Of a stretch of 44,388 nucleotides of DNA, positions 1,821 through 41,222 are shown in pieces (within the stretch, counting starts at the first letter, position 1; each line of letters begins with the position of its first letter). Under the pieces are notes generated by a model. The model did not search any database. It had not been told where the DNA came from and worked only from the letters and a program-made list of their open reading frames with translations. The translations under genes and the position numbers were made by a program. The stretch is from a phage. The DNA lies in the sequence record PX136376.1, one strand, 5' to 3'.

Positions 1821-3293
1821 ATGTTAACTATGAACGGTCAGAATCAGGGTGTTAAGACAAAACACCGGGAATGGCTGCATCACTTCGATAAATGGCAGAA
1901 GGTACGCCACGCGCTGGAAGGCGACCTTATTCGCTATCTGCGCAACGTCGGGAAGAACGAACCTGACCCGACCTACGCAGCCCAGCGCCAGGAAGAATAC
2001 GAGAACGGTGCTATCTGTTACAACTTCACTAAACGTACCCTGGCGGGGATGACGGGGTCAGTGATGCGCAAAGACCCTGAGCAGATTATCCCGCCTGAAC
2101 TTGAGTACCTGTTGCACAACGCTGACGGTTCGGGTGTAGGGCTGTGGCAGCACGCGCAGGATACGTTAATGGAGATTGACTCGATAGGACGCGGTGGGTT
2201 GCTGGTGGATGCCCCGGAAACAGCCGCAGCAACGGCGGCAGAGCAGAACGCGGGATTATTAAACCCGGTAATCGCATTCTATACCGCGGAGAACATTATC
2301 AACTGGAGACTCACCCGCATCGGTTCAGTGAACCGCGTGACGATGGTTGTATTGCGTGAGGCATGGGAATACTCGGAACCAGGCACTGAGTTTGAAACAA
2401 AATTCGGCGAGCAATACCGCGTCCTTGACCTGATTGATGGGCGCTACCGCCAGCGCATTTACCGCTTCGATGCAGAAGGTGGCGCACAGGGTGACGTAAA
2501 ACAAATCTTCCCGGAACTTGGCGGGCAATTGCGCGGTAAAATCCCGTTCACGTTTATTGGGGCAAGCAACAACGATGCGACCATCGACGACGCCCCTTTG
2601 CTACCGTTAGCTGAGCTTAATATCGGACATTTCCGCAACAGCGCAGACAATGAGGAATCCAGCTTCGTCGTGGGCCAACCCACTCTGTTCATCGCCCCCG
2701 GTGAGAACATGAGCATGGAGCAGTGGGCAGAAGCCAACCCACACGGCGTGCGCATGGGGTCGCGTTCAGGCCATAACATCGGTTACGGCGGAAACGCGTT
2801 CCTGGTCCAGGCGGGGGAAAACAACCTCGCCAAACAGAACATGCTGGATAAAGAGAATCAGGCAATCCAGATTGGCGCGCAGCTTATCACCCCGACGCAG
2901 CAAATCACCGCTGAATCGGCCCGTCTGCAACGCGGCGCTGATACGTCTGTTATGGCGACAATCGCACGTAACGTAAGCATGGCGTATACCGATGCGTTGC
3001 GCTGGGTAGCTGCGATGCTTGGGCTGCGTGAAGGCACAGAGGTTGAGTTCAAGCTGAATATGGAGTTCTTCCTGCAACCGATGACAGCTCAGGACCGCGC
3101 TCAGTGGATGGCGGATATTAACGCGGGCCTGTTACCCGCAACTGCTTACTATGCTGCGTTGCGCAAGGCGGGTGTAACTGACTGGACCGACGAGGACATT
3201 CAGACCGCTATCGAAGATGCACCGTTGCCATTAGGTACTGTTACTCAGGTGGCGGGGGAGATTCCTCCGTCGGCGCAGCAGCAACAGGAGTAA
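1821..3293 (+). CDS. portal protein
   Basis: 490 aa directly after terminase large subunit; RBS aagagga; size and position typical of portal; no motif-level confirmation. Confidence 0.7.
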   Translation: MLTMNGQNQGVKTKHREWLHHFDKWQKVRHALEGDLIRYLRNVGKNEPDPTYAAQRQEEYENGAICYNFTKRTLAGMTGSVMRKDPEQIIPPELEYLLHNADGSGVGLWQHAQDTLMEIDSIGRGGLLVDAPETAAATAAEQNAGLLNPVIAFYTAENIINWRLTRIGSVNRVTMVVLREAWEYSEPGTEFETKFGEQYRVLDLIDGRYRQRIYRFDAEGGAQGDVKQIFPELGGQLRGKIPFTFIGASNNDATIDDAPLLPLAELNIGHFRNSADNEESSFVVGQPTLFIAPGENMSMEQWAEANPHGVRMGSRSGHNIGYGGNAFLVQAGENNLAKQNMLDKENQAIQIGAQLITPTQQITAESARLQRGADTSVMATIARNVSMAYTDALRWVAAMLGLREGTEVEFKLNMEFFLQPMTAQDRAQWMADINAGLLPATAYYAALRKAGVTDWTDEDIQTAIEDAPLPLGTVTQVAGEIPPSAQQQQE

Positions 3294-5449: not shown

Positions 5450-5519
5450 TAAAAAGCCGGAATGATAAAAAGCCGGAATGATAAAAAGCCGGAATGATAA
5501 AAAGCCGGAATGATAAAAA
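5440..5519. repeat. perfect tandem repeat, 5 copies of 16-bp unit GCCGGAATGATAAAAA
   Basis: read directly; first unit contains the stop codon of the 4988..5449 CDS; array abuts a terminator hairpin. Confidence 0.95.
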
Positions 5520-5545
5520 GCCCCGCTATGGGGCTTTATTTTTAT
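5515..5545 (+). terminator. rho-independent terminator
   Basis: stem AAAGCCCC/GGGGCTTT with loop GCTAT followed by TTTATTTTT. Confidence 0.65.
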
Positions 5546-5609
5546 ATGAACATCGCGGTGATAGCCGCAGCCGATACCCACAAAACAAAATAAAACATCA
5601 CACTATTTG

Positions 5610-5954
5610 TCATTTGCATTTCTCGTCGTATGTTTGTTGTAACTGCGACAGACGATTACCGGCTGTCATCTCGTCCATAGAAGGCCCGGCGCCCGTGTCC
5701 ATAAAGAACAGCGGAACAATCAGGAATGCGCCTGTAACACCGAGTACAACGTTAGTACCTATTTGCTTATTAACACGGTGCGTAGCGTTGGCTTGAGCTT
5801 GTTTTGTCGTGGCGATTCTCGATAGTAACTGATTACATGTTGCCGTTGTATCCCCTGCCTGATAAACCTGTAAAGCCGGGTCTGGCAACGACCTTACGCA
5901 ACCACTCAAACAAACGGCTACAACACCTGCTACTGCTAATTTAATATATTTCAT
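5610..5954 (-). CDS. lipoprotein (candidate superinfection-exclusion or envelope-modifying protein)
   Basis: 114 aa; signal peptide with lipobox LSGC (MKYIKLAVAGVVAVCLSGC); later hydrophobic stretch VVLGVTGAFLIVPLFF; antisense to structural operon. Confidence 0.65.
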   Translation of the reverse strand: MKYIKLAVAGVVAVCLSGCVRSLPDPALQVYQAGDTTATCNQLLSRIATTKQAQANATHRVNKQIGTNVVLGVTGAFLIVPLFFMDTGAGPSMDEMTAGNRLSQLQQTYDEKCK

Positions 5955-6052
5955 AGTTCACCATTACCCGTGTCAATGTCACCAATACCGCTACAAGCCC
6001 AAAGAAACATCACCGCATCAACTGCAATTACTACTGAAATAACGACTAACAT
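5951..6052 (-). CDS. small hydrophobic membrane peptide (33 aa)
   Basis: MLVVISVVIAVDAVMFLWACSGIGDIDTGNGEL; GGAGG RBS 5 nt upstream; stop overlaps lipoprotein start (ATGA); below ORF-track size cutoff. Confidence 0.45.
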   Translation of the reverse strand: MLVVISVVIAVDAVMFLWACSGIGDIDTGNGEL

Positions 6053-13336: not shown

Positions 13337-14463
13337 CCCAGCATCTCCGGTGAAATAGTTAAACGTGCGACCTCGCCATATTCGGCGCTATAAGTAATTA
13401 CATTTGCACTGCGGCCTGACATCCACCCGCCGCGGGAGGCATAGGCGTCTTTAGCCGCTAAGGTGCGGTGTTGCTCAACAATCATGTTACGGCTTTCTAC
13501 AATCTTCTGGTGGTGCAGGTGGCCTACGTGGGCGTAGCTATAGACACTCTCACCGAACGCTTTGCGGAATTTGGCAATCATAACCGGTTCGATAGCATCG
13601 AATCGCGCCTTATGCCCGTGGTGAAAGAACAACGTCGTTTTTCCGTGTTGCACCATCTTGTAAACATCCGGCGACGTATCGACAATCACTCGGCTGTCGT
13701 TCGAATATAAAACTGTGAACATTTCAGCCAGCCATACAGAGCCTACAGGGTCATGGTTCCCCTGTACGATAAGCAAGCGAACATTTTTATGTTTAACCAG
13801 TGCCATATCTACAACACGGCGTACCATACGAATCATGTAGCGGACGAGTTTCTGGTAGCGAGTGTCTGCGTCCAACACGTGACGCGACTCAGGTGTAACG
13901 GCATCCAGACTATCGAAGTGCGCGAAATCACCCAGCAGGTTAATAACTCCTGTTCCTGCATCCGGTGCTTTCTGAAACGCCGCGTCGAACCAACGAGAGA
14001 ACAGGTCTTCCGCAATCTTTATATCCCAGTCGTCGCCGCTCTCGTCGGCCCAGGCAAGCATACCGAGATGGAAATCAGATACCGTGTAAAGATTGAGTAG
14101 CTTGTCGTCGCGTTTGGCTCGAGTCGCTTTAGCCGGCGCAACTGGCGTAATCTCTGACTTCATGCCTTCAATCACGGCTTTCATCAACTCGACCTGACGT
14201 TCAGCGTCGGTGTCTGTCTTAACCCATTGCAACTTAGTATTGCCGAACTCGTCTACCAGAGACGACGTCCCTTTAATCTTGTAGCCGTCTGGGACAAGGT
14301 GGCTAACGTCACGCCCGTGGCCTACACCTTTCTTAGCCAGCTTCGCTTTACGGATACGAATAACTCGGTCTGAGATGCCGTATTTACGGGCGATGTCTAC
14401 ATTCTTCATCCCGGCGTTCAATTCTTCCTGTAACTGTTCGTCGGTTATTTTCTTCTGGGCCAT
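13333..14463 (-). CDS. HTH-domain protein fused to calcineurin-like metallophosphoesterase (Mre11/SbcD-like or phosphatase-like)
   Basis: N-terminal HTH-like segment (NVDIARKYGISDRVIRIRKAKL); metallophosphoesterase motifs DFH, GDFAHFD, GNHD, HHGH, GHLHH; RBS gaggaag. Confidence 0.7.
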   Translation of the reverse strand: MAQKKITDEQLQEELNAGMKNVDIARKYGISDRVIRIRKAKLAKKGVGHGRDVSHLVPDGYKIKGTSSLVDEFGNTKLQWVKTDTDAERQVELMKAVIEGMKSEITPVAPAKATRAKRDDKLLNLYTVSDFHLGMLAWADESGDDWDIKIAEDLFSRWFDAAFQKAPDAGTGVINLLGDFAHFDSLDAVTPESRHVLDADTRYQKLVRYMIRMVRRVVDMALVKHKNVRLLIVQGNHDPVGSVWLAEMFTVLYSNDSRVIVDTSPDVYKMVQHGKTTLFFHHGHKARFDAIEPVMIAKFRKAFGESVYSYAHVGHLHHQKIVESRNMIVEQHRTLAAKDAYASRGGWMSGRSANVITYSAEYGEVARLTISPEMLG

Positions 14464-25052: not shown

Positions 25053-26473
25053 TTCTTACCTCGTCTCTTCATGTAGTTAAGCAACTCTTCCTGTACCGAT
25101 TTCTTCTCGTCGGTACGCGCGGCAACAACCTCGTCCAGCGTGTCTTTAGCGACTATGTGATAAAGGAACACCGGGCGCTCGTGCCCAGCTTGTTTCTGGC
25201 GAACAGGGCCGATGCGCTCGACAACCTGCAAATAGTGCTCAAGATTCCAGCCTTGTGAAATAAACGCCAGATGATGGCCGCCGTCCTGTAAATTCAAACC
25301 ATGCCCGGCTGACGCAGGGTGTACGCATAAGATTTCTATTTCGCCGCGGTTCCACGCTTCCATCTGCTTATTACCCTTCGCGCCTTTGGAAAACGCCTGC
25401 GCCTGTGGGAATCGCTTAAGGATGCGCTCAAGTTCGTGCTTGAACTGATAGGCGACCAGCAACGGCGCGCCCTGCAACTCCTCCACAATTGACTCCAGCG
25501 CATCAAGTTTCGTGTCGTGCACTTTCTCCCATTCTTTGGTTGATTCGCCATCTGGCCCCGATACATACACGGCACCGGAGGCAATCTGTAGGCACTTCGA
25601 CGTCTTCGCCGCAGCGTTAGCCGCTTCAACTTCTCCGCTTTCCAGTTCCGCGAATAACTTCTCCTCCATATCGATGTACGCCTGACGTGCTTTCTTCGGC
25701 AGGTCGATTTCAACCGGCACAATAATCGGCGCTTCACACCCGAACCACTCGGCGGCGTCAATCGTGAGACTAATGTCCTTCATCTTCTGGTGGATTTCAG
25801 TATCCGCACCCGGGCGGGCGTGGTATTCGCGCGCCATAGCAGATTTGCCTTTCTGCACCGAGTTAAACCAGCGGTCGGTGAATGCCGTGTACGAAGAACC
25901 GAGGCGCTCGCCCGCGTCGATAAACCAGTTCTGTCCCCACAAGTCCTTGAGGCCGTTAGGCGATGGTGTACCTGTCAGGTTGATAAAACGCTTAACCTTT
26001 CCGAACGCCACTCTACTAAGCGCCTTCGCCCGCTTGCTGCCGCCTGAACGGCTGCGGAATGACTTCAGTTTCGTGCTTTCATCGGCAACGATAACGGTAA
26101 AAGGCCAGTCGTCTTTGCCGTAGTAGTCAATCAACCACTCTATTACCTCATAGTTCGTGCACACCACGTTAGCATCTGACTCCAGCGCCGCGATGCGGCG
26201 CTTCTCTGAACCGGTCGCGTCTACGACACGCAGACATGGGAAATTCCATTTAGTTTGTTCCGCCGGCCATGTGCCTGATGCAACGCGCAACGGGGCGAGG
26301 ATTAACACGCGGTCCTCTTCTGTAAGCTGCCCGTTGCGGAACAGTCGGTTTAATGTCCACAGTACGCTGCCAGTCTTCCCGGCGCCCATGCTCGCCCAAA
26401 TATTACAGCGATGGTGCCGCAACATGAACGAAGTCATTAGCTTCTGGTATTCGCGCCTTTGAAACTTACTCAT
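25049..26473 (-). CDS. superfamily-2 DNA helicase (DEAD/SNF2-like)
   Basis: Walker A GAGKTG, motif II VADEST, LTGTP motif; 474 aa. Confidence 0.8.
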   Translation of the reverse strand: MSKFQRREYQKLMTSFMLRHHRCNIWASMGAGKTGSVLWTLNRLFRNGQLTEEDRVLILAPLRVASGTWPAEQTKWNFPCLRVVDATGSEKRRIAALESDANVVCTNYEVIEWLIDYYGKDDWPFTVIVADESTKLKSFRSRSGGSKRAKALSRVAFGKVKRFINLTGTPSPNGLKDLWGQNWFIDAGERLGSSYTAFTDRWFNSVQKGKSAMAREYHARPGADTEIHQKMKDISLTIDAAEWFGCEAPIIVPVEIDLPKKARQAYIDMEEKLFAELESGEVEAANAAAKTSKCLQIASGAVYVSGPDGESTKEWEKVHDTKLDALESIVEELQGAPLLVAYQFKHELERILKRFPQAQAFSKGAKGNKQMEAWNRGEIEILCVHPASAGHGLNLQDGGHHLAFISQGWNLEHYLQVVERIGPVRQKQAGHERPVFLYHIVAKDTLDEVVAARTDEKKSVQEELLNYMKRRGKK

Positions 26474-27263
26474 TTACGGCCCCCATGAACGCCTTTATAA
26501 ATTCAGCGGCTACTTGCGGGACGATAGCATTGCCGTAACCGCGCAATCGTCCCACTCTTGCGGATACCCCATGAGTTGCCTCGCAAAATCCGCCTGGTAT
26601 GACTCTAGTTTCCTTATCTGCTCCATGGTTGGGTTTCCATGAATCCCATAAACATGAAGCCACATCTGGCGATAAAGAGTATCGTTCCTGAATTTTCCGT
26701 CCTTTCTGTAAAATGTCTTGCTGAGATCCCCGTAATCCTTCCATCCTCGCGCCGTTGGTGTCGCCCATCCTCGCGCCAAAGATGATTCTTTTCCTTTCCT
26801 GTGGAGAGCCGACGCTGCAAGCTGGCAATACTGACGCCCCGCAGGCGTAGCCTTTGTCTTCCAGGTTAAGGAATACAAAATCGAGCCAGTGCTTCCCAAT
26901 TGCTGCTGCAACCTGCTCTCCAAACAGCAATTCAGGCTTGCACTCTCTGATGAGCCTGAGAAATGCTGGGGCAAGGTGTCGATCGTCGTCAAATCCGAGA
27001 GACTTACCGGCAACGCTAAACGGCTGGCAAGGTGGTGATCCTGTCCAGAGTCGAGTGCTTTCTGGTATTCCTGCCAGCTGGAGTGCAAGGGGCCACCCTC
27101 CGATTCCGGCAAAGAAGTGACACTGTGTAAATCCTTCCAGGTCTGAAGGGGTGACTTCGGTGATTGATCGTTCATCGACATATCCGTAAGGAATTAGTTT
27201 ATTGTTAATTAATTCACGCAGCCACGCGGCTGCGCCTTTATCCCATTCGTTGTAATAGTTCAT
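26466..27263 (-). CDS. DNA (cytosine-5)-methyltransferase
   Basis: motif I FFAGIGG, motif IV PPCQPFS (catalytic Cys), ENV-like EQV, QERKR, C-terminal GNAIV; compact 265 aa. Confidence 0.8.
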   Translation of the reverse strand: MNYYNEWDKGAAAWLRELINNKLIPYGYVDERSITEVTPSDLEGFTQCHFFAGIGGWPLALQLAGIPESTRLWTGSPPCQPFSVAGKSLGFDDDRHLAPAFLRLIRECKPELLFGEQVAAAIGKHWLDFVFLNLEDKGYACGASVLPACSVGSPQERKRIIFGARMGDTNGARMEGLRGSQQDILQKGRKIQERYSLSPDVASCLWDSWKPNHGADKETRVIPGGFCEATHGVSARVGRLRGYGNAIVPQVAAEFIKAFMGAVNE

Positions 27264-27451
27264 TTCGCCACCAGCACCAGCTCTTTACGCCCGAACGCCG
27301 TAACGTTACCCGTTACATCTTCGATAACCAGTTTACCGTTCGACTCGACGAACACCGTATCAACGGCAACAGGACGACGGGTCTTAACGTTGAAAATCAT
27401 GTCGCCTGGTACGATGTCACGTGCTGGTTTGCGGTCATATTCGTGTTTCAT
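27260..27451 (-). CDS. hypothetical protein (63 aa)
   Basis: RBS aagga 8 nt before ATG; overlaps neighbours at both ends. Confidence 0.45.
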   Translation of the reverse strand: MKHEYDRKPARDIVPGDMIFNVKTRRPVAVDTVFVESNGKLVIEDVTGNVTAFGRKELVLVAK

Positions 27452-27767
27452 TTCTAAATTCCTTATATTGTTGGGGTATGTGCTTACTATAATAGTCTGC
27501 TATTAGGGTGTCAATCTGTTTTATCGAACCAACGACAAAAACATTTGCGCCACGTTTACGTATACGCTCGTGTTCCCGTAGCTGGTGCGGGTCTGGCTTA
27601 GTGTTTTCGTCTTTCTTCACCTCGACGAACCAGACGATGCCGCCGGGTAGAATTGCCAGCAGGTCAGGAGCGCCTGAACGTCCTTCGTAGGAAAGTTTAC
27701 GAACGAGGCCACCAATGGCCTCGAATCGCTCTTTTGCGTATTTCTGGATGCGGCCCTCTTTAGTCAT
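27435..27767 (-). CDS. VRR-NUC domain nuclease
   Basis: 110 aa; PDLLAIL...VWFVEVKK pattern consistent with VRR-NUC PD-(D/E)XK core (recalled). Confidence 0.6.
   Translation of the reverse strand: MTKEGRIQKYAKERFEAIGGLVRKLSYEGRSGAPDLLAILPGGIVWFVEVKKDENTKPDPHQLREHERIRKRGANVFVVGSIKQIDTLIADYYSKHIPQQYKEFRNETRI
27486..27514 (-). promoter_or_regulatory. class 2 promoter with palindromic operator (internal to VRR-NUC coding region)
   Basis: minus-strand TTGACA-N17-TATAGT with perfect palindrome TAATAG-tctg-CTATTA in spacer/-10. Confidence 0.45.
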
Positions 27768-27916
27768 GACCGCAGCATCCAGGTAAGGAAAACCCAGCCT
27801 AGAATGGCAACACCGGCAAACTGAAAGAACAGGCCGTAACAGAACATAGCAGCTATTCCCGCACCGAGTAACAGTGTGAGCATGGTTACTATGGTCCTAA
27901 ATACAAACTTTGTCAT
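27764..27916 (-). CDS. small membrane protein (50 aa, two predicted TM helices)
   Basis: MTKFVFRTIVTMLTLLLGAGIAAMFCYGLFFQFAGVAILGWVFLTWMLRS; ATGA overlaps at both ends. Confidence 0.4.
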   Translation of the reverse strand: MTKFVFRTIVTMLTLLLGAGIAAMFCYGLFFQFAGVAILGWVFLTWMLRS

Positions 27917-28002
27917 AATACACACCCCTCACGTTTCGTATGTTCAGTACCGCAGCGCGGACAGATTCGACAGTCTTCTTCATAAAACCAGTAGATTTTC
28001 AT
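27913..28002 (-). CDS. small Cys-rich peptide (29 aa)
   Basis: MKIYWFYEEDCRICPRCGTEHTKREGCVL; ATGA overlaps both neighbours. Confidence 0.3.
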   Translation of the reverse strand: MKIYWFYEEDCRICPRCGTEHTKREGCVL

Positions 28003-28130
28003 TCCAGCACCCACATATAAATTGCGATGAACATGCCCAATATGGCAACCATCATGCCGTATTGACCCTCGTGACAGTAGACACCGGCGGCAAATCCCGC
28101 CAGTACCGCGATAATCAGTTTACTTGGCAT
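27999..28130 (-). CDS. small membrane protein (43 aa)
   Basis: MPSKLIIAVLAGFAAGVYCHEGQYGMMVAILGMFIAIYMWVLE; RBS aaggag 9 nt upstream. Confidence 0.4.
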   Translation of the reverse strand: MPSKLIIAVLAGFAAGVYCHEGQYGMMVAILGMFIAIYMWVLE

Positions 28131-28815
28131 CTCTACATTCTCCTTCAGGCCACCTATTAGGAAAAGACGGTATATGTGAAACTTCTCTCGCCGCTTTTAT
28201 TCTTTTAATGGCGGGACCTATCTCCGTAACCATTTCAATGAATGTAAACCGGTGTCCTCTGGTAAGATTACATGTCTGACAACAAGAAACGCAGTTAGAT
28301 ACTATGTGCCCGCTTGTATTATCTATGCGGTCTACCCCGACTTTTGTAGTGCTTCCGCAATAATGGCATGGCTGTGATATTAGTTTAATAACGCTTTCCA
28401 GTGTTAAATCGCAGATAAGCCCTTTTCCTGAATCTGCTCTTTTGTATCCTAACAAAAGCGCGTACGCCCGCGTCCTTTGGTCCTTATTCACCAGTTCCCT
28501 GCGTTGCTTGTTGAGACACTCCCGGCAATCTTTCCTGATATGAGAGCCATTACTTTTATTTCCTTTCCTGAAGTTTTCCTCTGTTAAAGGTTTTACCTCC
28601 CCACACTTTCTGCATTTAACAGGCTTCCCAGTGAAAACATACCAAGGGCTTTCTCGTCTGGATTTACCTTGTAATTTAAGTTTTTCGTCATACTTTTCCT
28701 TCCTGTTAGCATTTACACACTCTTTACACCAGCGTTGCAGCCCGAGGCGCGTTGACTTTGAAAAATACTCTGTAGTCGCCGGTTTATCTTCGCCGCATCT
28801 TGAACACTTTTTCAT
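28120..28815 (-). CDS. HNH endonuclease with N-terminal zinc-ribbon repeats
   Basis: repeated CxxC...CxxC units; C-terminal HNH-like CHYCG...DRIDN...GH...N; ATG at 28815 with GGAG RBS (ORF-track frame opens at 28827). Confidence 0.65.
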   Translation of the reverse strand: MKKCSRCGEDKPATTEYFSKSTRLGLQRWCKECVNANRKEKYDEKLKLQGKSRRESPWYVFTGKPVKCRKCGEVKPLTEENFRKGNKSNGSHIRKDCRECLNKQRRELVNKDQRTRAYALLLGYKRADSGKGLICDLTLESVIKLISQPCHYCGSTTKVGVDRIDNTSGHIVSNCVSCCQTCNLTRGHRFTFIEMVTEIGPAIKRIKAAREVSHIPSFPNRWPEGECRDAK

Positions 28816-28892
28816 TAATAACTCCAAAAAAAAATACCGACATAGCCATTATATCGGTATTTACATTTTCTACAACGTATTTCCTAAATCTA

Positions 28893-31073
28893 CTACTTGG
28901 CGTATCTGTACATTTCGCTACCTTCTGCTACAAGAGGGAACCCCTCCGCCCACTCCGGTAATTCGCACATCAACCGCTCAAGCTCTGCAACATTGTATTC
29001 TGGCGTATCTGGTGTTTCGCAGATAATTTCGTCGTGTACGTGAAGCACAATAGGATAGCCGTTTGCTTCAACGTTCAGCAGTGCATTGGCCAGCAAATCA
29101 CGGCACAGCGCCTGAGTACAGTTTTCCACGAGTTTACCAGAGTAGGTGTACTGGAAGCCCCACTGACGGGTTAACTGGTTCTCCCCCTGGTACTTGATGC
29201 GTACGTTAGTAGACACTTTTCCATCTTCGTCTGTTTCTTTCGACACGCTTAACCCGACGCCCGGATAAGACATAACGCGACCCGACGGCAACGTCATGCG
29301 CAACCACCAGCCGGCGACTTTGTTGCCGTTGTTGTCTGTCTCTACGTTGCGCGAAAACTTAACCCCCCTAGGCCCCGCGGTGAACTCTTTACCTGGATTG
29401 CGGATAGCGGCCATAGCTGCGTCTTCAATATCTCGCCAGAAAGCTACTGTTTCAGGGTGTGACTCTCGCCACATACGCTTGATAGCGTCACAGGTACGCC
29501 ACACTTTCTTATCAAGAATATACGATGGTCGGTCATCCTTCTCCCCGGGTCGCGGCGGTCGCTTGGCTTCCTGAATACGTGCCCATTCATAGCCGCGTGC
29601 AGTAGCCGCCCAGATGTGGTCCGGGAAAGTACCGTCCATTGTTTTTGACATATCAACAAGGTCAAGTCCGAGGTTCTTAGCAAACTGAACGAAAGCGCCA
29701 ACACCACCAGCGTAGCCGAGGCCAAGCTCGCAGGCTTTACCAATCTGGCGCAAGTCTTTGCGTTCCTTCTTAATGTAATCCGGCTCCATGCCGAACATCT
29801 TACCCGCGGTTACACAGTAAATGTCCAGCCCGGCGCGGAACGTATCTAGCGCGGTTTCTTCGCCTGCCAGCCACGCAAGCCCCCGACCTTCAACGTTAGA
29901 GTAATCGGCGACGACAAACTTTTTTCCGGCTTCCGGGATAATGCAGCTACGCACCGTCGATGCCGTTAGCTTAGCGACATCGAAACGGCGATGCGCGCGG
30001 CCCTTAAGTAACGCTGAAATACCTTTATCCAGTTCATCATCGTGATAGTACCCACGCGCGAGGTTCTGCGGCTGAAATCCTTTACCGGCAAATCGTAATG
30101 TACGCTTGGCTCCGCCGTACTGAATGCAACCACGACGGCGGTCGTCCGACGAGCGCCCTAACAGCAGCGGGTTATATTTCGTTGACGCTGTGGACGCGGC
30201 CCCGAGGCGCATTTCGATAATCGTGCGTGCGTCGTCCGGTAAATCATCATCCGCCAACAGGTCGTTAAGCGTAGACTTCTGCGCGTTGTGGATGCGGTGC
30301 GCTGGTGCAAGTTCACGCAGAATCGGCAGGAAGTCTTTACCAGTAAGCGAGCCGCCGTATTTGCGCTGTGCTTCTTCCTGTAGCTGGGCCTTGTGTTTTT
30401 CCACGGCTTCAATCGCGGCTTCCGCCAGCGTCACATCAACCTTAAACCCACGGTCGTTAATCAACTGGTCCAGTTCCAGTACACGGTCTTCGAACTCGGA
30501 GTTACCCCAACGCGGCAGCTTATGGAAGACTTCACGCATCGCAGTGATGTCGCTCACGGCGTACCTGATGAACATCGCCCACTCGTCAGGGTGAGTTTCT
30601 GCGGTGTAGCGGCGGATTTTGTAGTTCTTCGGCGTCGGTTTAGAGAAACGCTTAATCAGAGCCTTGCCGCGTTTATCTTTCGCGTTGTCTGCAGACACGC
30701 CCAGCACTTCGCACAGCGCATCAAGAGAACCCGGCAGCGCGTGACGGAACGCCCAAATCATAGTATCAATGGTGTTACTTACCGGAATATCAAAGTCCCA
30801 GCAGTGTTTCATGATTAGGCGATCGAAAAGTCCACCGTTGTGCCACACCATCTTGATGCGGCTGTTGGGCTTAACAAGGCGGCGCAGTGCGCGGTGTAAA
30901 TCCCCCGGCATGTCGCTGCCGTCGGTGCAATCCCATACCCGCACAGGTTCGTCGTCAAAAGCATATGTACAGATAAGCACTTCGGTTGACGGGTGTTCGG
31001 CGTAAGCGTAAGAACCGACTTTCTTCAAATCGGCTTCGGAGAATGTTTCAAAGTCCAGGTATAAGTAGCTCAT
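28893..31073 (-). CDS. family A DNA polymerase with 3'-5' exonuclease domain
   Basis: exo motif YLDFETFS; Pol A motif A VVADYSNVEGR; motif B RQIGKACELGLGYAGG; ATG at 31073 with RBS aaggaaaag (ORF-track frame opens at 31127). Confidence 0.9.
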   Translation of the reverse strand: MSYLYLDFETFSEADLKKVGSYAYAEHPSTEVLICTYAFDDEPVRVWDCTDGSDMPGDLHRALRRLVKPNSRIKMVWHNGGLFDRLIMKHCWDFDIPVSNTIDTMIWAFRHALPGSLDALCEVLGVSADNAKDKRGKALIKRFSKPTPKNYKIRRYTAETHPDEWAMFIRYAVSDITAMREVFHKLPRWGNSEFEDRVLELDQLINDRGFKVDVTLAEAAIEAVEKHKAQLQEEAQRKYGGSLTGKDFLPILRELAPAHRIHNAQKSTLNDLLADDDLPDDARTIIEMRLGAASTASTKYNPLLLGRSSDDRRRGCIQYGGAKRTLRFAGKGFQPQNLARGYYHDDELDKGISALLKGRAHRRFDVAKLTASTVRSCIIPEAGKKFVVADYSNVEGRGLAWLAGEETALDTFRAGLDIYCVTAGKMFGMEPDYIKKERKDLRQIGKACELGLGYAGGVGAFVQFAKNLGLDLVDMSKTMDGTFPDHIWAATARGYEWARIQEAKRPPRPGEKDDRPSYILDKKVWRTCDAIKRMWRESHPETVAFWRDIEDAAMAAIRNPGKEFTAGPRGVKFSRNVETDNNGNKVAGWWLRMTLPSGRVMSYPGVGLSVSKETDEDGKVSTNVRIKYQGENQLTRQWGFQYTYSGKLVENCTQALCRDLLANALLNVEANGYPIVLHVHDEIICETPDTPEYNVAELERLMCELPEWAEGFPLVAEGSEMYRYAK

Positions 31074-31245
31074 TTCTTTTTCCTTAAATCCAGTGCCTTC
31101 GTTTCGCTTAATCTTATTTTCATACAATCACGGCAAATCCACACATGCCTGTACCCGGCCCGGTGCCCATCCGCGTACCACGGAAGCGGTTTCATATAGC
31201 GATAAACGTGCTTACAGAAAAACATTATTTTCGACCCCTAGTAAA

Positions 31246-31970: not shown

Positions 31971-31999
31971 ACTATAATAGCTAACTATTCAGGTGTCAA
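31971..31999 (-). promoter_or_regulatory. class 2 promoter with palindromic operator
   Basis: minus-strand TTGACA-N17-TATAGT; palindrome TAATAG-ctaa-CTATTC; ~55 nt upstream of SSB-like gene start. Confidence 0.5.
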
Positions 32000-34863: not shown

Positions 34864-34893
34864 ACTATAATAGCGAACTATTCACATGTCAAT
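34864..34893 (-). promoter_or_regulatory. class 2 promoter with palindromic operator O1
   Basis: minus-strand TTGACA-N17-TATAGT; palindrome TAATAG-cgaa-CTATTC. Confidence 0.5.
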
Positions 34894-39612: not shown

Positions 39613-39874
39613 CAGCTACACCGTTACCGTTGATTTTGAGGGGCTGGAGTTGCCCCTCCCCAACAACTACAGATATGTCACGCGCGACCGTAACGGGTTT
39701 ATCCAGGGGTGGCGGAACAAACCGACAGATACTGAGTTCGGGATGTCGGGCGGCGAAGAGTTGCCTATCACTTTCGGGCATCAGAGTAGCAGCGAAGAGC
39801 TTAAAACTGTGATTCGTAAGTATCGCCGCCGCGGTAACACTGGGCTTATAGCAATAACAGGTGCTGTTGAATAA
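39602..39874 (+). CDS. hypothetical protein (90 aa)
   Basis: ATG at 39602; overlaps upstream ORF by 11 nt. Confidence 0.45.
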   Translation: MNFSSYTVTVDFEGLELPLPNNYRYVTRDRNGFIQGWRNKPTDTEFGMSGGEELPITFGHQSSSEELKTVIRKYRRRGNTGLIAITGAVE

Positions 39875-39903
39875 GCGAGAGGAGAGACAAAGGTGAAAGA
39901 GCT

Positions 39904-40107
39904 ATGACCAGCATCTTATTTATCTGGGTATTGTCCGCAGGCCAGATGCAACTCGCAGCATCGGAAACGTTTTACTCGATGGAGGCGTGCCAGTCAGCGG
40001 CACGCGCTGCAGAGAACGCGCACTTTCTGTTTCAGGGCGACAAGCCCAACGATTCAGAGGTACGCGCTATCTGCTCACCTAAGCGACTTGGTAAACAGGA
40101 GAAGTGA
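39904..40107 (+). CDS. small secreted/membrane-anchored protein (67 aa)
   Basis: N-terminal hydrophobic segment ILFIWVLSAGQMQLAA. Confidence 0.45.
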   Translation: MTSILFIWVLSAGQMQLAASETFYSMEACQSAARAAENAHFLFQGDKPNDSEVRAICSPKRLGKQEK

Positions 40108-40109
40108 TT

Positions 40110-40301
40110 ATGGTACGGTTATATGAAGCACGAGGGGCTGAATTAGGGGGCGACGCATTCTACGAAGATTGGGTTGAGGTTGTTCGGTATGAAGATTACG
40201 CGAAACTTGAAGCTGAGTTACAGAAATACAAAGACCAGTACCCTGATTACGTCGAGTGCGCGAACTGCGGGTCGGTTACACATGTGGAAGGGGTGGAGTA
40301 A
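40110..40301 (+). CDS. hypothetical protein, paralog A (63 aa)
   Basis: RBS aggag 8 nt before ATG; shares YEDYAKLEAELQKY-type motif with next gene. Confidence 0.45.
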   Translation: MVRLYEARGAELGGDAFYEDWVEVVRYEDYAKLEAELQKYKDQYPDYVECANCGSVTHVEGVE

Positions 40302-40495
40302 TGGTGCAGAGATATGAGGTAAAAGCGTGGGGCCTGCCAGAGCCTGAGATGGCTGAGTACGCATACGGCGATTATGTAGAATATGACGCTTATCTGAAAC
40401 TTGAAGCAAAGTTACGTGAATTCGCTAAGCAGGTGCTAGATAGCCCGTGTGACTGGAAGACAAATGAATTAGCGCGCGAGATTCTTGGAATATGA
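40301..40495 (+). CDS. hypothetical protein, paralog B (64 aa)
   Basis: TAATG overlap; YDAYLKLEAKLREF motif paralogous to previous gene. Confidence 0.45.
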   Translation: MVQRYEVKAWGLPEPEMAEYAYGDYVEYDAYLKLEAKLREFAKQVLDSPCDWKTNELAREILGI

Positions 40496-40785
40496 GCCTT
40501 GCAACTGACATCCTGAAACGAAGCGGCCTTGCGCCGCTGTCACCGAGAGCGAAGACACGTATACACAAGCGTCGCCGTAACGTGCTGTACCCAGAGATAC
40601 AAGAACGGCGTAAAGCTATCCGCGCCTGTGGATTCCAGAACGGAAAGGCCGTGAATCTAGGAGAGTTTAAAACAAAGGAACGCGCAGCTATCGCGAACCG
40701 GCTATTTAATTACTGGAAATCGCTGGGGTACGATGATATTCCGACGAAACCACAGAGACGACAATACATCTGGAGACATAAATGA
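40492..40785 (+). CDS. basic hypothetical protein (97 aa)
   Basis: Lys/Arg-rich; ATGA overlaps both neighbours. Confidence 0.45.
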   Translation: MSLATDILKRSGLAPLSPRAKTRIHKRRRNVLYPEIQERRKAIRACGFQNGKAVNLGEFKTKERAAIANRLFNYWKSLGYDDIPTKPQRRQYIWRHK

Positions 40786-41222
40786 CTACTATCGCGTTTG
40801 ACGGAAAGACAATGGCCTGTGATACCCGTGTTGTGTGCGGGAGTAACTGTTACAACACAGACACAAAGATATACGAGAACGAATTTGTTGTTATTGGGGC
40901 GGCTGGCGATGCGGGGGTTGGTATCCTTTTAGTGGAGGACGATAGTATTTTAGTGCCTAAGCACTACGATTTTGATTTCTCTGCCTTGGTGTGGGTTAAA
41001 GACATCGAAACGTTGTGTAGGGTGGAGTTCTATAAATCTTGGGATTGTGCTCTTAGTTTGGTTATTCAGATTGCGGACAGCTTTTCCGCCGTTGGTTCAG
41101 GCGCCCCTTATGCCCTAGCGGCTATGGAATGTGGGTATTCGGCGCAAGGTGGTGTAGCAGTTGCATCGAAGTTCGACCCTGACACCGGCGGCAAGATTAT
41201 TACCAAACAACTATTAGGATAA
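40782..41222 (+). CDS. HslV-like Ntn-hydrolase peptidase (proteasome beta-subunit fold)
   Basis: N-terminal MTTIAFDG (Thr2 nucleophile position), VIGAAGDAGVG and AVGSGAPYALAA align with E. coli HslV MTTIVSV, IAGFAGGTAD, IAIGSGGPYAQAA (recalled); 146 aa. Confidence 0.65.
   Translation: MTTIAFDGKTMACDTRVVCGSNCYNTDTKIYENEFVVIGAAGDAGVGILLVEDDSILVPKHYDFDFSALVWVKDIETLCRVEFYKSWDCALSLVIQIADSFSAVGSGAPYALAAMECGYSAQGGVAVASKFDPDTGGKIITKQLLG

Follow-up and report, generated by a model that had tools for sequence, protein, structure and literature searches.

Our analysis of the window, i.e. the whole 44,388-nucleotide stretch of phage DNA in record PX136376.1, points to the three micro-ORFs upstream of the VRR-NUC nuclease gene as genuine, lineage-restricted small genes of the replication/recombination operon of the Guernseyvirinae (Table 1). 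In the model that we favor, and to which we give a probability of roughly 50%, ORF1, ORF2 and ORF3 would be cotranscribed with the polymerase gene and translated via stop/start coupling, first where ORF1 overlaps the upstream gene by 11 nt and then at three ATGA overlaps, ribosomes being handed from the polymerase gene PolA (here from an inserted HNH gene) through ORF1-ORF3 to VRR-NUC. ORF2 would be the core element, a cytoplasmic peptide in which Cys27 and His21/Cys11 supplement a single CPxCG knuckle; it would probably bind a metal ion and assist, as a small cofactor, the replication/recombination proteins of the adjacent genes. ORF1 and ORF3 would be unrelated, dispensable inner-membrane accessory peptides, ORF1 forming a tight two-helix hairpin. 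Since they occupy a hypervariable slot, these two would most likely act on the envelope or the physiology of the host, as exclusion or takeover factors for instance, and not in replication itself; no result of our analysis tied either of them to a particular target.

Table 1. Genes and signals at the ORF1-ORF3 locus (positions in the window)
Feature	Position	Strand	Remarks
VRR-NUC / Holliday-junction-resolvase-like nuclease gene	27435..27767	-	phrog_93 and phrog_5702; ATGA-coupled to ORF3
ORF3, hydrophobic micro-protein, 50 aa	27764..27916	-	50 codons, MTKFVFR...MLRS; one or two predicted membrane segments
ORF2, hydrophilic Cys-knuckle peptide, 29 aa	27913..28002	-	29 codons, MKIYWFYEEDCRICPRCGTEHTKREGCVL; CPRCG...H...C
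Shine-Dalgarno-like GAGGGG	27925..27930	-	within ORF2 codons 25-26, 8 nt upstream of ORF3 ATG
ORF1, membrane micro-protein (predicted), 43 aa	27999..28130	-	43 codons, MPSKLII...WVLE
Stop/start overlap, 11 nt	28120..28130	-	ATGCCAAGTAA; upstream gene (here HNH; PolA in most relatives) / ORF1; direct reading
HNH/endonuclease-VII-like homing endonuclease gene	28120..28827	-	phrog_1035, E 4.5e-30; probable ATG 28815
Shine-Dalgarno-like AAGGAG	28140..28145	-	9 nt upstream of ORF1 ATG; direct reading
Family-A DNA polymerase gene (PolA)	28893..31127	-	
Sigma-70-like promoter (predicted)	31971..31999	-	TTGACA-N17-TATAGT, 11/12 consensus match

The window genome is that of an E. coli phage, a Kagunavirus of the subfamily Guernseyvirinae, and this stretch is 99% identical to Escherichia phage SonjaBuckley_Bas74 (PQ850627; Bas74 below). 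ORF1-ORF3 and all neighboring genes of the locus lie on the minus strand. An earlier note on this DNA had placed three ORFs of 43, 29 and 50 codons in 27764-28130, and both the sizes and the outer coordinates are exact. The ORFs are already known: annotations of near-identical phages list them as hypothetical proteins. In Bas74 they are the CDS Bas74_0040, Bas74_0039 and Bas74_0038, which are the same genes, with identical order, lengths and overlaps and with 96-100% amino-acid identity to the window. Each matched one PHROG family lacking functional annotation: ORF1 matched phrog_10404 over its full length (E 8e-32, residues 1-43 of 43), ORF2 phrog_38225 (E 2.7e-21, residues 1-28) and ORF3 phrog_14925, again over its full length (E 2e-26, residues 1-50 of 50). 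A Kagunavirus transcriptome paper in which 57 genes are annotated (PMC12645636) does not resolve ORF1-ORF3, and they are mentioned neither there nor in the BASEL collection paper.

Conservation and the pattern of selection show that all three are genuine small-protein genes. About 50 metagenomic relatives (51 from IMG/VR) have kept the frames, lengths and overlaps of ORF1-ORF3, a conservation on which the earlier note had made its proposal depend. The dN/dS ratios were 0.21, 0.064 and 0.19 for ORF1, ORF2 and ORF3, respectively, compared with 0.8-3.1 in the off-frames (1.1-2.1 in those of ORF1), 0.13 for VRR-NUC and 0.087 for the C-terminus of PolA.

ORF2 is a core gene of the subfamily, found in all 445 GenBank relatives and in 51/51 of those from IMG/VR. 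Its synonymous divergence is normal (dS 0.62), and 17 positions are invariant, with E8, E9, D10, R12, I13, C14, R16, G18, T22-G26 and C27 among the residues that never change. The peptide is Cys-rich, as the earlier note had it, with four Cys in 29 residues, and is hydrophilic. Cys14, Cys17 and Cys27 are near-invariant and His21 is replaced by Tyr or Gln in two of 18 variants, Cys11 and His21 never being lost together. A search against PDB profiles aligned the CPxCG exclusively with zinc-ribbon and rubredoxin knuckles, at non-significant scores (best E 0.29). Neither the PDB nor the Pfam matches reached significance, so that it is only the motif that suggests metal binding. The AF2 model was of low confidence (pLDDT 59.5) and without secondary structure. 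Like the zinc ribbons and rubredoxins, ORF2 has a CPRCG followed by a His and a Cys within 10 residues; however, those proteins have two CxxC-type knuckles, whereas ORF2 has a single CPRCG, Cys27 and the variable Cys11/His21, which places it outside the family. The span from the second to the last Cys equals that of a CCHC knuckle, but the spacing is C-X2-C-X3-H-X5-C and not C-X2-C-X4-H-X4-C, and His21 is not invariant, so that ORF2 does not belong to zf-CCHC either; a Pfam search for this domain gave no match at E <= 10. As functional analogues one can name small zinc-finger regulators of other phages, Mu Com and P2 Ogr for instance, although ORF2 with its 29 residues is much shorter. An exhaustive HMM search of 1.84 billion representatives returned two clusters of the family itself, besides three repetitive Cys-rich matches judged spurious. 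Should ORF2 prove to be a working 29-residue cofactor of a nuclease or polymerase of the phage, it would rank among the smallest known replication accessory proteins and would offer a handle on the control of VRR-NUC resolvases.

ORF1 was found in 224 and ORF3 in 121 of the 445 GenBank relatives, and both are therefore accessory. Their strongly hydrophobic character, claimed in the earlier note, was borne out by GRAVY values of 1.30 and 1.47. Hydropathy and insertion-energy windows (the latter negative for ORF3) predicted at least one transmembrane segment in each, as is expected of holins. For ORF1 the AF2 model (pLDDT 95.2) agreed, showing a helix-turn-helix with helices at 2-20 and 23-42 and the conserved YCHEGQYG in the turn. 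This hairpin retrieved only generic hairpins from PDB and BFVD (E >= 2.3) and superposed on many uncharacterized phage hairpin peptides. The two peptides are not duplicates of each other (hhalign probability 0.5%), and homology of ORF1 to a 38-aa hairpin encoded downstream of VRR-NUC at another locus (L123) was unsupported. Synonymous divergence of ORF1 is low (dS 0.25), and fixed synonymous codons are more numerous in ORF1 and ORF2 than in their neighbors; recent recombinational spread or constraints from the overlaps may thus account for part of the conservation of these two. There is also a natural in-frame deletion in which ORF1 is lost and its start codon is retained, fused to ORF2 (MLSKLII-YYFREEDC...), so that ORF2 would still be coupled to the polymerase gene. 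The slot of ORF1/ORF3 can alternatively hold a 64-aa CxxC protein, hydrophobic peptides of 23-25 aa or two other HNH genes. The PolA/VRR-NUC junction is flagged as a hot spot where small accessory genes settle along with homing endonucleases.

The earlier note had assigned the peptides to a nuclease operon made of HNH, VRR-NUC and methylase genes, and here the comparison led elsewhere. The HNH gene is mobile and inserted only sporadically, being present in 3/51 related loci and in about 4/445 GenBank relatives, and its link to ORF1-ORF3 is therefore accidental. In relatives that do not carry it, the stop codon overlapped by ORF1 is that of the polymerase gene. The methyltransferase gene is absent from Kenya-K53, the one Jerseyvirus checked, where ORF2 is kept. 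The genes around ORF1-ORF3 encode a primase-helicase, an exonuclease, an annealing protein, PolA, VRR-NUC (labeled as a Holliday junction resolvase in the Bas74 annotation) and an SNF2 helicase. The operon holding ORF1-ORF3 is thus a phage replication module and not a restriction-like unit.

A first alternative, which we consider unlikely, joins the three peptides and the flanking enzymes into one unit, in which ORF2 would be a zinc-knuckle adaptor and ORF1 and ORF3 membrane anchors that hold VRR-NUC or the polymerase at the inner membrane, forming a replication or resolution site there. It would account for the tight stop/start coupling to both enzymes, and a precedent of sorts exists, phi29 p16.7 and p1 being membrane proteins that organize phage DNA replication. 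These come from a replication module as well, but p16.7 has a soluble DNA-binding domain, whereas ORF1 and ORF3 are almost wholly hydrophobic, have no homology to the phi29 proteins and are missing from many relatives. Other clades with a homologous VRR-NUC gene also have small coupled ORFs upstream of it, among them a family of Arg/Tyr-rich peptides of 30-31 aa, a CCHC knuckle of 26 aa and membrane-anchored Cys-rich proteins; at five loci (L150, L155, L164, L229 and L232) one protein has both a knuckle (Cys-rich or CCHC) and a membrane anchor at its C-terminus. These ORFs resemble ORF1-ORF3 in their position between PolA and VRR-NUC, in size and in overlapping the start of the nuclease gene by 4 or 8 nt, but no homology to any of the three was detected (hhalign probability <= 7%); in particular, neither the 30-aa Arg/Tyr peptides nor the 26-aa CCHC peptide could be supported as homologues of ORF2. 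Many unrelated soluble proteins occupy the upstream slot in those clades, and the diversity of the families is what an insertion hot spot would lead one to expect. Counted per locus, hydrophobic small ORFs were enriched among the upstream neighbors (14/56 versus 44/451 background ORFs, p=0.002), but clustering into families removed the enrichment (6/38 versus 36/309, p=0.30), and we rejected the idea that membrane micro-proteins generally accompany VRR-NUC. Within the Guernseyvirinae, 5/52 loci have ORF2 with neither ORF1 nor ORF3, and half of the GenBank relatives are without ORF1 and three quarters without ORF3. A bolder form of the same idea, in which the 29 residues of ORF2 would form a metal-binding subunit universal to the VRR-NUC or the polymerase of the Guernseyvirinae, with ORF1/ORF3 as optional membrane anchors and the locus as a split version of the knuckle-plus-anchor proteins of other clades, seems distinctly unlikely. 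If true, it would reveal a previously unrecognized membrane-tethered recombination/resolution module.

We regard as very unlikely the proposal that the hydrophobic peptides are toxins, holin-like proteins or immunity factors belonging to the nuclease and methylase genes. ORF1 and ORF3 are indeed small, hydrophobic and adjacent to nuclease genes, and overexpression of small membrane peptides is often toxic. However, the sporadic HNH gene is not co-inherited with them, and scans of all three peptides with Pfam, NCBIfam and PADLOC gave no match above cut-off, placing none of them in the Hok, Ldr, TisB or Ibs type I toxin families. With PHROG added, no similarity to toxin, holin, exclusion or defense families was found, and the PHROG and Pfam searches gave no sequence match to known superinfection exclusion families. 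Word-indexed homology searches with ORF1, ORF2 (padded query) and ORF3 recovered close relatives only, on contigs of ~43 kb, and none of these searches yielded a functional homologue, domain or structure. Read directly, the C-termini of ORF1 (...YMWVLE) and ORF3 (...TWMLRS) have no holin-typical charged tail. Bas74 has its lysis cassette elsewhere (two holins, endolysin and spanins at 39759-40908 and 5486-5981), together with a separate Imm-like exclusion gene at 13442-13648 for a 68-aa "superinfection immunity protein". T4 Imm, Sp and Ac are small phage inner-membrane proteins involved in exclusion and acridine resistance. ORF1 and ORF3 can be likened to them as tiny hydrophobic phage proteins, presumably of the replication phase, but share no sequence similarity with them, and the phage has its Imm-like gene at another place. 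A further, non-significant match of the ORF1 model (TM-score 0.84, E 3.6) was to the Salmonella phage Melville protein labeled "acridine resistance protein". A role of ORF1 and ORF3 as accessory peptides, as in the model that we favor, would extend the short list of characterized phage membrane micro-proteins.

The earlier note had described every ATG as overlapping the preceding stop in an ATGA. This holds at ORF1/ORF2 (28002-27999), ORF2/ORF3 (27916-27913) and ORF3/VRR-NUC (27767-27764) but not at HNH/ORF1, where the overlap is the 11-nt ATGCCAAGTAA. The coupling said to continue downstream was found at the 63-aa ORF/methyltransferase and helicase/45-aa ORF junctions, both ATGA, but not at VRR-NUC/63-aa ORF, which overlap by 17 nt, nor at methyltransferase/helicase, which overlap by 8 nt (ATGAGTAA) or, with the start annotated in Bas74, are separated by a 28-nt gap. 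Among relatives, the polymerase stop overlaps ORF1 by 11 nt in 40/44, and 4-nt overlaps are seen at ORF1/ORF2 in 45/45, at ORF2/ORF3 in 19/24 (the remaining five have an inserted 64-aa ORF, ATGA-coupled too) and at ORF3/VRR-NUC in 24/24. The start/stop geometry has thus been kept, as would be expected of translationally coupled overlapping genes. As a chain of ATGA junctions the locus is not beyond chance: in the Bas74 annotation 4-nt overlaps occur at 20 of the 74 same-strand junctions, shuffling gives runs of at least three in 69% of cases and 21 of the 81 CDS are shorter than 60 aa, ATGA chains and micro-ORFs being ordinary in this genome. The predicted promoter upstream of PolA, which has an extended motif in common with two other sites, likely gives rise to a transcript covering PolA, ORF1-3 and VRR-NUC.

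These signals bear on a further, highly improbable alternative, in which translation of ORF1-ORF3 would merely carry ribosomes from the polymerase gene to VRR-NUC and the peptides would be functionless. In its favor, the Shine-Dalgarno motifs ahead of ORF2 and VRR-NUC are weak, and ORF2 codons 25-26 would also serve the following gene as a ribosome-binding site, being fixed at synonymous sites (GAG in 45/45, GGG in 44/45) while the adjacent codons vary. However, a relay alone would not explain strong purifying selection on the amino acids (dN/dS 0.06-0.21) with variable synonymous sites, the number of invariant positions in ORF2 or its retention in minimal relatives with a direct Pol-ORF2-VRR order.

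That ORF1-ORF3 are not genes, being chance spacer ORFs or the trace of a conserved DNA/RNA element or opposite-strand gene, could be argued from their length (all <60 codons) and from the missing annotation of ORF2 in many Jerseyvirus records, but this reading is effectively refuted already by the frame-specific purifying selection and the conserved starts and stops, by the lack of any conserved antisense ORF at the locus (stops break the frame of a 94-aa candidate at 27876-28160 in the majority of relatives) and by folding z-scores of -1.2 to +0.95, with a 4-bp hairpin as the sole consensus structure. Annotations should retain ORF1-ORF3, even if the practical value is modest on present evidence; kagunaviruses serve as engineering chassis, for which telling the core from the dispensable genes among the three is helpful. 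The ORF2 frame is that of the HNH/Pol gene and is open from the HNH/Pol stop codon. Metagenome assemblies hold frameshifted ORF1-ORF2 and ORF2-ORF3 "fusions" of 72-79 aa; their breakpoints all differ, and we therefore read them as sequencing errors or tolerated mutations and not as products of programmed frameshifting or read-through.

Like the other genes of this region of the window, the three micro-genes ORF1, ORF2 and ORF3 lie on the minus strand, and they are arranged for stop/start coupling. ATGA overlaps were found at the ORF1/ORF2, ORF2/ORF3 and ORF3/VRR-NUC (nuclease gene) junctions, confirming in substance the chain described in the earlier note. Two details did not hold. ORF1 does not begin as an ATGA over the stop of the preceding HNH endonuclease gene; the overlap is 11 nt (ATGCCAAGTAA), with the ORF1 ATG 8 nt upstream of the HNH stop TAA. 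The ATGA coupling said to continue downstream was recovered at the 63-aa ORF/methyltransferase and helicase/45-aa ORF junctions only. The helicase start is ambiguous: its first ATG overlaps the methyltransferase stop, and the annotation of the near-identical phage Bas74 uses an ATG 36 nt further downstream.

Features of the micro-gene region and its surroundings (window positions)
Feature	Coordinates	Strand	Description
ORF1	28130..27999	minus	43 codons, MPSKLIIAVLAGFAAGVYCHEGQYGMMVAILGMFIAIYMWVLE
ORF2	28002..27913	minus	29 codons, MKIYWFYEEDCRICPRCGTEHTKREGCVL
ORF3	27916..27764	minus	50 codons, MTKFVFRTIVTMLTLLLGAGIAAMFCYGLFFQFAGVAILGWVFLTWMLRS
VRR-NUC gene	27767..27435	minus	110 codons, next after ORF3
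63-aa ORF	27260-27451	minus	phrog_4879
Helicase start	26437-26473	minus	first ATG 26473
HNH cassette	28120-28907	minus	inserted
Duplication copy, polymerase end	28907..28893	minus	AGATACGCCAAGTAG; ATG lost
Duplication copy, HNH end	28134..28120	minus	AGAGATGCCAAGTAA; ORF1 start retained
Hairpin	28862..28832		13 bp, with T-run
Promoter 1	34864-34892	minus	sigma-70-like
Promoter 2	31971-31999	minus	sigma-70-like
Promoter 3	27486-27514	minus	sigma-70-like
VRR-NUC/63-aa ORF junction			17-nt overlap
63-aa ORF/methyltransferase junction			4-nt overlap
Methyltransferase/helicase junction			8-nt overlap; gap if later start used
Helicase/45-aa ORF junction			4-nt overlap
Fusion proteins			P0061, P0063-P0068, P0074, P0075 (metagenome assemblies)

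Escherichia phage SonjaBuckley_Bas74 shares 99.3% identity with this stretch, and Bas73 99.1%. Matches were obtained to 445 phage records, almost all of which belong to Escherichia and Salmonella phages in the genera Kagunavirus and Jerseyvirus (Guernseyvirinae). The three ORFs are already known: in Bas74 they are the hypothetical proteins Bas74_0040, 0039 and 0038, flanked by an "endonuclease VII" (the HNH gene) and a "Holliday junction resolvase" (the VRR-NUC gene), and each matches over its full length a separate PHROG family without assigned function. Of the 81 CDS annotated in Bas74, 21 are shorter than 60 aa, and 20 of its 74 same-strand junctions overlap by 4 nt; shuffling yields three such junctions in a row 69% of the time. 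Micro-ORFs chained by ATGA are thus usual for this genome. The observation is correct but ordinary, the arrangement being typical for compact phage operons. Our additions are modest: the ORF2 micro-gene occurs throughout the subfamily under strong constraint and often goes unannotated, and its neighbors ORF1 and ORF3 are dispensable.

Relatives were sampled as 70 IMG/VR loci retrieved via the VRR-NUC protein, 50 of them Guernseyvirinae. Among the latter, ORF2 was present in all, ORF1 in 43 and ORF3 in ~23, with lengths kept. Nei-Gojobori dN/dS was 0.21 for ORF1, 0.064 for ORF2 and 0.19 for ORF3, compared with 0.13 for VRR-NUC, 0.074 for the 63-aa ORF, 0.087 for the polymerase C-terminus and 0.8-3.1 for the two off-frames of each ORF. 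Synonymous divergence of ORF2 is normal (dS 0.62), which places the constraint on the peptide. The 4-nt overlap was conserved in 45/45 relatives for ORF1/ORF2, in 24/24 for ORF3/VRR-NUC and in 19/24 for ORF2/ORF3, the remaining five having an inserted, likewise coupled 64-aa ORF. Conservation of the reading frames, on which the earlier note had made its proposal depend, was therefore found, and at the level of sequence evidence we consider the matter settled in favor of real genes. No RNA structure signal was detected at the locus. An antisense 94-aa ORF was rejected as stops interrupt its frame in most relatives.

A tblastn search of 50,697 phage records located ORF2 in 445, that is, in every record with the locus, ORF1 in 224 and ORF3 in 121. 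ORF2 is core; ORF1 and ORF3 are accessory. Seven metagenomic loci (L012, L017, L025, L026, L031, L048, L050) and many Jerseyviruses, including GenBank records OQ291027 and MK578530, carry a clean in-frame deletion that fuses ORF1 codons 1-7 directly to ORF2 codon 4 (MLSKLIIYYFREEDC...), so that ORF1 is gone and ORF2 is still coupled to the polymerase. The product is a 33-36-aa gene within an 87-nt unannotated gap, and ORF2 falls in such a gap in several GenBank Jerseyvirus records. What lies between ORF2 and VRR-NUC differs among relatives: ORF3, a 64-aa CxxC protein, 23-25-aa hydrophobic peptides, an HNH gene, or nothing at all. The optional 64-aa ORF (MSNKPFSKKLAALVDMPEWEF...CAGCTHKG...; L003, L004, L032, L034, L039, L046, L047; ~2661-2855 or 2810-3004) sits between ORF2 and ORF3 or VRR-NUC, ATGA-coupled at both ends, and the hydrophobic ORFs of L042 and L051 are possibly ORF3 remnants. 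In some assemblies, frameshifts produce 68-73-aa ORF1-ORF2 and 79-aa ORF2-ORF3 fusions, and the ORF2 frame in the window is open back to the HNH stop. A programmed frameshift was set aside since the breakpoints differ in position; we read them as errors or tolerated mutations.

In most relatives, the alignment to the window begins only at 28130-28135, and in 40/44 loci ORF1 overlaps the DNA polymerase stop by the same 11 nt. The alignment places an inserted HNH cassette at the PolA/ORF1 junction, with an imperfect 15-nt duplication on both sides. The ORF1 start was kept at the HNH end, so the endonuclease gene takes over the coupling role of the polymerase. Some other relatives have different HNH genes, either at this junction or in the ORF2/VRR-NUC interval. 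The ORF1-HNH association is accidental. Jerseyvirus Kenya-K53, the one checked, has ORF2 and no methyltransferase, and the genes around the locus form a replication module. The "nuclease/methylase operon" framing was not upheld. The polymerase C-terminus is intact despite the cassette, which opens with the hairpin and T-run, after which come GGAG and the HNH start. The last 135 polymerase residues (28893-29300 compared with L002-L051) occur as two classes of allele (94-99% or 75-78% identity with the window) that do not follow ORF1 or ORF2 identity, implying a recombination breakpoint at the Pol/ORF1 junction.

ORF1 is predicted with high confidence (pLDDT 95.2) to form helices 2-20 and 23-42, with two residues making the turn between them, and conservation is highest around this turn (YCHEGQYG); fold searches returned generic membrane hairpins only. 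In ORF3 the hydrophobic part spans residues 8-48, and position 32 is a conserved Lys/Gln. Comparison ruled out homology between the two. Both would, with moderate confidence, insert into the inner membrane. ORF2 is hydrophilic and its AlphaFold model is poor. E8, E9, D10, R12, I13, C14, R16, G18, T22, K23, R24, E25, G26 and C27 are invariant and C17 nearly so; C11 and H21 are each replaced occasionally, never both in one sequence. Its CPRCG is a classical zinc-ribbon/rubredoxin knuckle motif. The Cys/His spacing does not match a CCHC knuckle. A PDB profile search gave only CPxCG-type knuckles with non-significant E-values, and none of the family models matched. ORF2 probably binds metal via Cys14/17/27 plus His21 or Cys11. 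More tentatively, it might serve the replication/recombination proteins that always flank its gene, and ORF1 and ORF3 could be accessory peptides aimed at the host.

Homology searches found the three ORFs in Guernseyvirinae sequences only; for ORF2 they extended to an exhaustive profile search against 1.84 billion representatives. All three are lineage-restricted orphans. In several unrelated phage clades with a homologous VRR-NUC, the small coupled ORF that directly precedes it encodes a Cys knuckle, a membrane segment, or the two combined in one protein. Examples are a 26-aa peptide that is a perfect CCHC knuckle and nothing more (L201), this knuckle joined to a membrane anchor (L150), and Cys-rich proteins with an anchor (L155, L164, L229, L232). 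One could propose that VRR-NUC may have a dedicated membrane-anchored partner. Among the upstream neighbors in 80 loci from that clade, 14/56 were hydrophobic small ORFs, vs. 44/451 background small ORFs (p=0.002). However, the enrichment disappeared after family clustering (6/38 vs. 36/309, p=0.30), and the upstream proteins of other clades have no detectable homology to ORF1, ORF2 or ORF3. It is safer to regard the junction between polymerase and VRR-NUC as a general hot spot where small, coupled accessory genes settle. In another phage clade, 30-31-aa Arg/Tyr-rich peptides (MTLYRLYRMYRGFGYGRALALKTAWRRTRHA and relatives; L161, L162, L182, L188, L196, L199, L224, L225, L119) lie directly upstream of VRR-NUC, their ORF ending 8 nt into it.

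Four rival explanations were considered. The genes might form a membrane-tethering unit, but ORF2 persists in some relatives where ORF1 and ORF3 are both missing. ORF1 and ORF3 might be toxin or immunity factors. ORFs acting only as a translational relay are opposed by the constraint on the ORF2 peptide. That they are non-genes is contradicted by the preserved frames.

ORF2 codons 25-26 (GAG GGG) are synonymously fixed and are the ribosome-binding site of the following gene. Codons 8, 9, 12, 13, 16 and 23 also use one synonymous codon, rare CGA included, in 43-45 of 45 distinct sequences, and neither an overlapping frame nor RNA structure accounts for these mid-gene positions; codon choice is free at the Cys residues, Gly18, Thr22 and Arg24. 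The 63-aa ORF, for which no family or domain match was found, is 94-100% identical across the subfamily and more conserved than the adjoining nuclease. The three promoters have identical hexamers (TTGACA-N17-TATAGT) and share a spacer palindrome, AATAG...CTATT, possibly an operator. Promoter 3 is within the 3' end of VRR-NUC, upstream of the 63-aa ORF.
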